Below are positions 26,165 to 26,253 of a stretch of DNA of 64,000 nt, in pieces; within the stretch, counting starts at the first letter, position 1, and every line of letters starts with the position of its first letter. The stretch covers positions 97,217-161,216 of the IMG/VR virus record IMGVR_UViG_3300045988_126669; one strand, given 5' to 3'. This stretch comes from a virus. Position numbers and translations under genes: made by a program. Under the pieces are notes generated by a model. It made no database searches and was not told the origin of the DNA. It worked only from the letters and a program-made list of their open reading frames with translations.

Positions 26165-26253
26165 TGCCCCGTAGTGTAATGGTTAACACGGCGGTCTCTA
26201 AAACCGTTTTCCCTTTGAAGGAGTCGTTCTGGGTTCGAATCCCAGCGGGGCTG
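26165..26253 (+). tRNA. Amber suppressor tRNA(CTA) with Gln-like acceptor and an enlarged variable region
   Basis: t1-t72 mismatch, acceptor gccccg/cggggc, G73, D-arm gtgt-aatggtta-acac, anticodon stem gcggt/accgt, loop ctCTAaa, 21-nt variable region, T-arm ctggg-ttcgaat-cccag; no CCA. Confidence 0.6.

Follow-up and report, generated by a model that had tools for sequence, protein, structure and literature searches.

Code-15 recoded phages with a tRNA-Sup(CUA) were reportedly noted by Ivanova in 2014. In the gut phages with this code, the amber codon TAG is concentrated in structural and late-type genes, and a CUA tRNA of the glutamine (Gln) isotype is accompanied by a large tRNA array, with the standard code being presumed for the host (Borges et al., bioRxiv 10.1101/2021.08.26.457843; Peters et al., PMC9523058). 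The DNA analyzed here, a stretch of 64,000 nucleotides (nt) covering positions 97,217–161,216 of the IMG/VR virus record IMGVR_UViG_3300045988_126669 ("the window" in the following), resembles those phages in all these respects and uses the same code, but its amber suppressor tRNA at positions 26165–26253 includes a second anticodon-like hairpin, which is not described for them. The efficient charging of phage suppressors by host synthetases was left as an open point by Borges et al. (bioRxiv 10.1101/2021.08.26.457843), and it is this point that the second hairpin probably concerns: one arm would decode the stop codon, while the other would keep the anticodon identity for the synthetase. Neither the TAG-to-Gln code 15 nor phage suppressor tRNAs nor theta ribozymes are new. 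The second arm with a cognate anticodon is apparently undescribed so far; no description was found in the searchable literature, subscription-only papers being outside its coverage.

Structure of the suppressor tRNA

The tRNA and its two hairpins are located as follows:

26165–26253, + strand: amber suppressor tRNA(CUA), Gln-like, 89 nt up to the discriminator G73 (ARAGORN, RF00005)
26191–26207, + strand: hairpin 1, the canonical anticodon arm GCGGU-CUCUAAA-ACCGU, anticodon CUA at 26198–26200
26209–26223, + strand: hairpin 2, UUCC-CUUUGAA-GGAG, with UUG at 26215–26217 plus an A37-like A

ARAGORN delimited a 90-nt tRNA with the anticodon CTA at 26165–26254, the only CUA tRNA in the window. It was also recovered by the covariance model RF00005 over its full length (1–71) with 57.8 bits (gathering score 29), with 17–21 nt being treated in the Rfam alignment as a variable-region insertion. 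The Gln-type identity features named in an earlier note on this DNA, made from the letters alone, were all present, namely an unpaired 1:72, G73, G10 and U35: the acceptor stem UGCCCCG/CGGGGCU has a U1·U72 mismatch, and the D arm contains G10 and G18-G19, with an 8-nt D loop including GG. The T arm reads CUGGG-UUCGAAU-CCCAG. Hairpin 1 starts directly after G26, one nucleotide past the D stem, and consists of a 5-bp (base pair) stem and a loop of 7 nt in which U33 is present and position 37 is a purine; all five of its pairs showed double-sided changes among 25 relatives.

The same note had suggested that the 21-nt variable region, TTTCCCTTTGAAGGAGTCGTT, could form a second hairpin resembling a UUG anticodon arm, and UUCC-CUUUGAA-GGAG is indeed present there. 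Its loop is the textbook anticodon loop of tRNA-Gln(UUG), with 7 nt, a U33-like U and an A37-like A, and it is followed by a 5-nt linker, UCGUU, which has the ordinary length of a class I variable loop. The canonical connection to the tRNA body is made by hairpin 1 on the 5' side and by hairpin 2 on the 3' side.

The Gln isotype of the tRNA is supported by these sequence features, and charging with Gln by glutaminyl-tRNA synthetase (GlnRS), or by GluRS plus GatCAB, would be expected. In E. coli extracts, phage CUA tRNAs inserted Gln in 28 of 29 cases and UCA tRNAs inserted Trp in 13 of 13 (bioRxiv 10.1101/2025.10.30.685624); a second arm is not mentioned by the authors of that work. The tRNA-Pyl label assigned by ARAGORN was rejected: a tRNA-Pyl has a 3-nt variable loop, a short D loop, a 6-bp anticodon stem and accompanying pyl genes, and the 21-nt variable region, the 8-nt D loop with GG and the 5-bp anticodon stem contradict this assignment. 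The label reflects the CUA anticodon alone.

Second hairpins in other phage suppressor tRNAs

A scan of IMG/VR with a pattern defined by nothing more than the CUA loop, the T loop and a long gap between them yielded 56 unique cloverleaf-consistent CUA tRNAs with a long variable region. YUGA was present in the variable region of 45 of them, with 8.7 expected by shuffling, and CCAA in a single one. The motif-bearing hairpin loops sit on 22 distinct stem sequences. In an alignment of 25 tRNAs (A1), the core pairs of hairpin 2 (47-59, 48-58 and 49-57) all had compensatory, double-sided changes, and the five-helix structure was 91% paired versus 38–48% in slid controls. Furthermore, the hairpin-2 stems were longer than in shuffled flanks, and the base 5' of the triplet was U in 33/44. 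Position 1:72 was unpaired in 13 of the 25 relatives, as expected for substrates of GlnRS, which prefers an unpaired 1:72. The long-variable CUA tRNAs without YUGA have G1:C72 and, from their sequences, are provisionally regarded as Ser/Leu/Tyr-like; for SerRS and LeuRS the anticodon is not a recognition element. One relative, listed in the accessible part of the supplementary tables of Kienbeck et al. (PMC10879173), has CUCUGAA (anticodon CUG) at the hairpin-2 position and is typed there as 'Gln CTG pseudo'. Judging from these comparisons, hairpin 2 is a selected feature and not a product of chance.

The same scan with a UCA loop, used as an opal control, produced 15 long-variable tRNAs which were Trp-like, with A1:U72, G73 and the hairpin-1 loop CUUCAAA. 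Their extra hairpin displays UCCAA, including the Trp anticodon CCA, in 14/15 cases and YUGA in none (0/15). In several of these second hairpins a perfect stem of 5 bp carries the 7-nt loop CUCCAAA; loops CUCCAAA or GUCCAAA were found at loci L320, L341, L358, L257, L267, L271, L246, L273, L279, L323, L265 and L254. As far as the sequences indicate, each suppressor class shows its own cognate anticodon on the second arm. An ochre test by a scan for UUA anticodons gave eight cloverleaf-consistent tRNAs, three of them long-variable and without an informative second hairpin.

The loops of hairpins 1 and 2 are one base apart (CUCUAAA versus CUCUGAA/CUUUGAA in the Gln-like and CUUCAAA versus CUCCAAA in the Trp-like tRNAs), and this single suppressor-making difference suggests that the anticodon arm was duplicated in tandem and that one copy then acquired a point mutation. 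The two-arm class proposed here is defined by a suppressor arm after N26, a second hairpin with the cognate anticodon plus A, and a linker of 4–6 nt; it has 45 Gln-like and 14 Trp-like members, and the window tRNA belongs to it.

Reading of TAG as glutamine

Genes of the window with in-frame TAG codons include:

4331–5227, + strand: endonuclease-like gene with six in-frame TAGs
11944–13359, + strand: glycine-rich (ALK_LTK_GRD, Pfam) gene with six in-frame TAGs
13341–14654, + strand: glycine-rich (ALK_LTK_GRD, Pfam) gene with five in-frame TAGs
27435–28928, + strand: Listeria-Bacteroides-repeat (Flg_new, Pfam) gene with seven in-frame TAGs
4331–5227, 22381–22977, 46352–46903, 50661–51404, 57312–58103 and 59682–60425: six paralogous endonuclease-like genes

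When TAG was read as sense, the coverage of the + strand by open reading frames (ORFs) of at least 200 amino acids (aa) rose from 24,984 to 39,240 nt, a check that the earlier note had proposed for its claim of genome-wide recoding. With TGA as sense it reached only 27,651 nt, and this small gain, together with seven genes ending in TGA, rules against TGA as a sense codon in the window. In the set used for counting (53 genes of at least 100 aa, overlaps removed), 69 in-frame TAGs were spread over 24 genes, in line with the dozens of TAGs within continuous frames noticed earlier, and the stop codons were TAA in 46 genes and TGA in seven. The claim that every gene ends in TAA or TGA holds for this set but may fail for one additional ORF:

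26488–26850, + strand: ORF of 120 aa (MFDIYLNY...), first in-frame stop TAG at 26848

A tRNA-Tyr (26828–26917) begins within this ORF, which is present only in close relatives; TAG may be a true stop here, or the gene may be read through late in infection.

The Pfam domains ALK_LTK_GRD (residues 32–287), Flg_new, HNH and NAGPA run continuously over in-frame TAGs, full-length homologues exist for TAG-bearing genes, and the homology continues past the TAGs. The endonuclease-like gene at 4331–5227 was taken as the test gene and searched against a large protein collection: in 89 full-length homologues of its product, Gln was the commonest residue at four of the six TAG columns. Because the protein database translates some recoded genes with Q (e.g., P0001), codons were counted on homologous DNA from IMG/VR, with a TAG column being one in which any member has TAG and the codons of the other members being counted. 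Gln occupied 107 of 452 non-TAG cells, mostly as CAA, i.e., 24% compared to a background of 3.5%, which makes it the top residue, as the recoding claim predicted; it was followed by Lys and Glu, which are Gln-like replacements, with Ser in only 12 cells. The homologous genes of other phages have their TAGs at other, Gln-rich columns. In relatives 90–96% identical to the window, 22 of 23 TAGs were kept in frame, and TAG was exchanged with CAG three times and with CAA and ACG once each.

The six endonuclease paralogues contain repeated TGQKFGxLTV...YWxCxCxCG modules, all with TAG codons, and are scattered among the tRNA and repair regions. All four motif cases quoted in the earlier note, with TAG at the place of CAA in paralogues, proved exact to the codon: in the TGxKFG motif, TAG at 4355, 4559 and 4742 corresponds to CAA at 22408, 50913 and 57339, and in the WxCxCxCG motif, TAG at 46457, 50781 and 57411 corresponds to CAA at 22477, 50985 and 59967. 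Further paralogue columns occupied by either TAG or Gln are ECWGA[TAG/Q]GG and GSFG[TAG/Q]G, both in the glycine-rich genes, as well as [D/N]G.[TAG/Q]H and GDIWI[TAG/Q]Y, the last one lying four codons upstream of TAA. The domains spanning TAGs, the codons of homologues, the exchanges in close relatives and the paralogues are four independent lines that all agree, and the meaning TAG = Gln is well supported by this comparative evidence. Code 15 is in use in the AT-rich genes, mostly structural or homing-endonuclease genes.

Proposed mechanism and alternative explanations

GlnRS and TrpRS are strongly anticodon-dependent (review PMC9976931), and the changes that create a suppressor, G36A in the Gln-like and C34U in the Trp-like tRNAs, remove an identity nucleotide, in the case of G36A a major one for GlnRS. 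The probable explanation for the second arm is that a recoded phage has, within its own tRNA, one hairpin for decoding and another for identity: hairpin 1 (CUA) would pair with UAG on the ribosome, while hairpin 2, as an anticodon-arm mimic showing U-UUG-A, would compensate for the loss caused by G36A by being read by the anticodon-binding domain of the synthetase. For this, hairpin 2 would have to stack under the D stem instead of hairpin 1, or both would be placed side by side. Since the display of the cognate anticodon is conserved, reading of hairpin 2 by the synthetase is the simplest account. The arrangement most likely originated by tandem duplication of the anticodon arm with a subsequent point mutation in the 5' copy (amber, CUCUGAA to CUCUAAA; opal, CUCCAAA to CUUCAAA). 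The synthetase contact, the geometry and the origin by duplication we infer. A wider picture, in which suppressors generally split identity, held by a duplicated cognate-anticodon arm, from decoding, and in which an rRNA mimic encoded downstream (see below) might also weaken termination as a decoy, is put forward tentatively, as a serious possibility that may well turn out wrong.

Several points weigh against the identity role of hairpin 2. In the usual L-shape the variable arm falls short of a class I anticodon-binding domain, and a rearrangement must be postulated. In the Gln class, hairpin 2 has a stem of only 3–6 bp, with the triplet 5–6 nt from the stem base instead of 7. Short-variable Gln-like CUA tRNAs were about as frequent in the sample as the two-hairpin type, and in the siblings L515 and L517 a short-variable CUA tRNA occupies the identical genomic slot before the same ribozyme; because such suppressors exist, even in the same slot, hairpin 2 is not obligatory. 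All sampled tRNAs share the T loop GGTTCGAATCC and many of them come from one metagenome collection, so that they are not fully independent. Many Bacillota/'Mollicutes', the groups of the bins with related contigs (see below), lack GlnRS and would use a non-discriminating GluRS plus GatCAB. Finally, the advantage in aminoacylation that hairpin 2 would confer over tRNAs without it is deduced from sequence. In L515 and L517, compared to 26165–26309 of the window, the flanks, the ribozyme and the downstream RNA are the same and the CUA tRNA is a different one (73 nt, U1·C72, G73), which looks like a cassette-type swapping of suppressor tRNAs between siblings.

Two alternatives concern the code itself. 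That the in-frame TAGs are true stops, produced by pseudogenes, split genes or assembly errors, with the CUA tRNA being incidental, is improbable in the extreme: more than half of the window's genes are TAG-free and the ORF at 26488–26850 possibly ends at TAG, as this would predict, but the 69 TAGs lie in 24 genes with undisrupted frames, they stay in frame in the close relatives (22/23), domains and homology run past them, and homologues in other phages place TAGs at other Gln-rich columns. It is also very improbable that a class II-like tRNA is charged by SerRS (or LeuRS/TyrRS), which would make TAG a codon for Ser, Leu or Tyr. A long variable arm and G73 are the two main bacterial SerRS determinants (PMC7609411), the window tRNA combines a 21-nt variable region with the discriminator G73, and ARAGORN, unable to type it, resorted to 'Pyl'; however, Gln leads the TAG columns (107 cells against 12 for Ser out of 452), close relatives swap TAG with CAG/CAA, and the D arm and acceptor stem resemble those of tRNA-Gln rather than class II. 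The arm is present, but the 5-nt 3' linker after it, unlike that of class II tRNAs, the Gln-like acceptor and D arm, and TAG columns that are not Ser/Leu/Tyr place this tRNA outside class II.

The main rival to a role in identity takes hairpin 2 as a second working anticodon arm, with the tRNA switching its stack to read both UAG and CAA/CAG, so that one gene would serve as tRNA-Gln and suppressor. The window tRNA would suit this, having a 7-nt hairpin-2 loop with the U33-like U and A37-like A and a normal 5-nt variable loop behind it, which leaves either hairpin 'half-canonically' connected; there is no ordinary tRNA-Gln among the approximately 28 tRNAs of the window, and several Trp-like cases have the perfect 5-bp stem and 7-nt loop. 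Nevertheless, dual decoding is disfavored and, in our estimate, quite unlikely: many relatives have hairpin-2 loops of 3–5 nt or stems of 3 bp that could not decode (e.g., GCCUU-CUG-AGGGC, CUGG-GCUGA-CCAG and GUGGGG-UUGA-CCCCGC), and an ordinary tRNA-Gln is encoded beside the two-hairpin tRNA in 9/44 loci, and in 6 of the 11 loci with at least 10 tRNAs. A neutral relic of duplication, or a stabilizing arm whose loop sequence is irrelevant, would fit with hairpin loops differing by a single base and with short-variable suppressors working without hairpin 2. It is, however, unlikely, because a relic would decay, while the loop motif was kept on stems diverged into 22 variants with compensatory changes, and the matching cognate anticodon appears separately in the Gln-like and Trp-like tRNAs with no cross-occurrence.

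If hairpin 2 does keep the anticodon identity for the synthetase, it would represent a new principle of tRNA identity, a natural 'two-anticodon' design, explaining how the unmodified GlnRS or TrpRS of the host can charge suppressors efficiently, and providing a design rule for suppressor tRNAs in genetic-code expansion and nonsense-suppression therapy. The hypothesis is concrete and testable by simple aminoacylation and reporter assays. Typing of such tRNAs as 'Gln CTG pseudo' or 'Undet' by tRNAscan-type programs hides the suppressors and, with them, the recoded phages.

Predicted theta ribozyme at the tRNA 3' end

The tRNA is directly followed by a predicted ribozyme, and three genes further downstream may be related to the fate of the tRNA end:

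26255–26307, + strand: predicted hepatitis delta virus (HDV)-like 'theta' ribozyme (descriptor; RF02682 26.1 bits, E 0.004)
56221–57027, + strand: RlaP-like nucleotidyltransferase gene, TAG-free (Pfam)
58107–58880, + strand: metallophosphoesterase gene, TAG-free (Pfam)
60427–61803, + strand: DRB0094-type RNA ligase gene, TAG-free (Pfam; TIGR02306 37.7 bits, below cut-off)

The ribozyme has the nested double-pseudoknot layout P1-P2-P3-P1.1-P4 with a C in J4/2. Its helices are P1 GGUGCU/AGCACU, P2 AAACAAA/UUUGUUU, P3 ACC/GGU and P1.1 GG, with the loops L3 UCCUCGC and L4 GUAAUG and a J4/2 of CUAA, including the catalytic C. It was the sole match of the descriptor on both strands of the window. 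The Rfam thresholds were not reached (26.1 versus 44 bits for RF02682 and 15.9 versus 37 for drz-agam-1), these models being built on variants with a longer P4. P1 and P2 covary with those of a ribozyme following a different CUA tRNA in L514. The ribozyme G1 at 26255 is 2 nt past G73 (26253), within ±5 nt of the tRNA 3' end; relatives encoding CCA are without the ribozyme. The descriptor matched after 2/56 long-variable and 1/56 short-variable CUA tRNAs, and because the ribozyme follows so few tRNAs of either type, it and hairpin 2 are independent features.

The predicted Mg-dependent self-scission 5' of G26255 would leave the tRNA ending in ...G73-C74 with a cyclic phosphate, and this end would then presumably be healed and completed to CCA. 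The nucleotidyltransferase, phosphoesterase and ligase are candidate RNA end-healing/repair genes that might act on the tRNA end. The DRB0094-type ligase family is reported to be 140-fold enriched in ribozyme-bearing phages (PMC10879173).

Mimic of the ribosomal GTPase-associated center

Two more structured elements are encoded behind the ribozyme:

about 26310–26358, + strand: hairpin with a conserved loop, upstream of the mimic
26359–26449, + strand: structured RNA mimicking 23S rRNA H42-H44 (GTPase-associated center, L11/L10 site)

The mimic starts about 50 nt downstream of the ribozyme and matched the large-subunit rRNA model at positions 1092–1152 (15.9 bits, E 0.0046). Compared to E. coli 23S rRNA 1051–1108, the 58-nt L11-binding RNA, it is identical at 29 of 38 positions in the 5' half, with compensatory differences, and it keeps the closing stem H42, the UUAGAAG loop of H43 and the junction AUC.UUUAAAGA, while its equivalent of H44 is a longer, different hairpin. 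rRNA-mimicking leaders such as the L10 leader precede ribosomal-protein genes, whereas this mimic is stand-alone and lies 3' of Gln-family tRNAs; a scan of Rfam gave no ribosomal-protein leader match for it. A covariance model of the mimic (R1) had 30 matches, 17 of them distinct. In the alignment, 93.8% of the cells were paired and 15 pairs had double-sided changes, values reached in 0/500 shuffles.

Besides the window, the mimic was seen at L005, L023, L072, L076, L144, L236 and L507–L524. A motif scan located it at 25 phage loci, most of them downstream of a CUA tRNA, at a distance of 43–44 nt without and 104–107 nt with the ribozyme; at the remaining loci it is downstream of an ordinary tRNA-Gln (CUG/UUG), which weakened the initial idea of a specific link to suppressors. 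ORF coverage rises with TAG or TGA as sense in about 20 of the 25 loci; L508 and L522 gain from TGA-as-sense only, and L144, L509 and L513 have too little DNA for recoding to be judged. A function as leader of the gene at 26488–26850 was rejected, this gene being confined to close relatives. The mimic may be in the same transcription unit as the tRNA, and, speculatively, its role could be that of a decoy for L11, L10 or release factors, which would add a possible further part to the machinery of the phage code switch. A literature search found no description of such an rRNA mimic (subscription-only papers were outside its coverage).

Gene classes and other features of the window

The observation of the earlier note that GC-rich genes contain no TAG was substantiated: the TAG-free genes have a GC content of 0.36 versus 0.32 (p=0.01), and they are more numerous (29) than expected under a random spread of TAGs (17.4). 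For Gln the TAG-free genes use CAG, in sharp contrast to the TAG-bearing genes with CAA almost exclusively; the MVP-like gene, for example, has 27 CAG and one CAA. The GC-rich, CAG-using genes of this phage avoid TAG. By analogy with Borges et al. (bioRxiv 10.1101/2021.08.26.457843), the partition may reflect expression timing. An intron endonuclease was found to be restrained by recoding in that work, and the endonuclease paralogues of the window are, by the same analogy, likely homing-type mobile genes restrained in this way.

A GC-rich, CAG-using and TAG-free block is located at 48983–54019 and 56221–63377 (+ strand), with TAG-bearing endonuclease genes interspersed (57312–58103 and 59682–60425, among the repair genes). 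Apart from the RlaP-like nucleotidyltransferase, the metallophosphoesterase and the DRB0094-type RNA ligase, its products include DUF2828/DUF7788 vWA-type, MVP-like (MVP shoulder and Vault_3 domains) and macro-domain (DarG-like) proteins. From its gene content the block looks like an RNA-repair or Ro/vault-like module.

About 28 tRNA genes are present in the window, 25 detected by ARAGORN and three more by Rfam. The tRNA at 14733–14803 (+ strand; Rfam 46.2 bits) has a perfect 5-bp anticodon stem, a 6-nt loop CUUCAA and no anticodon that ARAGORN could assign, and is perhaps a defective UCA tRNA or one of the frameshift type. An 85-nt tRNA-like gene at 24833–24917 (+ strand; Rfam 35.1 bits) has a long variable arm and a poorly paired anticodon stem, and was called CGC at a lowered threshold. 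A RAGATH-33 RNA (RF03102) is encoded at 44093–44221 (+ strand; 126.8 bits, gathering score 120.4); the stretches 43886–44079 next to it are common to other phage loci. Between genes, the window contains repeated cassettes with promoter boxes of the sigma-70 type (TTGACA or TTGATT, a 17-nt AT-rich spacer and TATAAT), which belong to at least three sequence subfamilies and are also found in other phage contigs:

14661–14725, 15742–15798, 24172–24245 and 43419–43486: promoter-type cassettes, group 1
1486–1556, 15493–15561, 25091–25164 and 59171–59219: promoter-type cassettes, group 2
5314–5367, 6974–7034 and 47030–47074: promoter-type cassettes, group 3

All genes of the window are on the + strand, and the DNA is AT-rich, with 27–43% GC. 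A megablast search with 24 kb of the window produced only tRNA-sized matches in 50,697 phage records, with no close cultured relative among them. The IMG/VR relatives L113 and L035 (193–196 kb) are 90–96% identical to the window, and L489, a 164-kb contig in an 'uncultured Mollicutes' metagenome-assembled genome (MAG) bin, is about 95% identical; the MAG bins with related contigs are Bacillota or 'Mollicutes'. The source is a phage of the gut type, large (about 190 kb) and uncultured.

Comparison with known tRNAs and RNA mimics

The theta ribozymes of Kienbeck et al. 2024 (PMC10879173) are the closest match for the 3' end of the locus: they share with it the descriptor layout, in which a 6-bp P1 is allowed, cleavage 1 nt past the discriminator, a CUA tRNA without encoded CCA and a DRB0094-type ligase nearby. 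The exact sequences of the window tRNA and ribozyme were not present in the accessible part of the supplementary tables, which contained a related tRNA only; in the entries of that part, reads of tRNAs bearing hairpin 2 were typed by their pipeline as 'Gln CTG pseudo'.

The E. coli suppressor supE (glnV) has, like the window tRNA, a Gln body with the G36-to-A change; it reads UAG and is charged by GlnRS, as the window tRNA would be. As a class I tRNA, supE has a variable loop of 5 nt, and it is a poor substrate for GlnRS; the phage tRNA differs from it by the additional hairpin re-displaying YUG. An extra helix between the anticodon and T arms is shared with the class II tRNAs (Ser, Leu, bacterial Tyr, Sec) and with allo-tRNAs. 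In class II, however, the length and orientation of the arm, and not its loop, are the identity signal, and 1–2 nt connect it to the T stem, whereas in the tRNA type described here the loop is conserved, showing the cognate anticodon, and the linker has 4–6 nt.

Anticodon mimicry as such has precedents. The thrS operator contains a mimic of the anticodon arm that is read by the synthetase. In the yeast HisRS mRNA (PMC6542539) and in viral tRNA-like structures (10.1101/2023.07.08.548219), a hairpin mimicking the anticodon loop recruits the anticodon-binding domain of the synthetase. These known mimics are located in mRNAs or viral genomes, whereas hairpin 2 would be a mimic placed inside a working tRNA, beside a different anticodon used for decoding.

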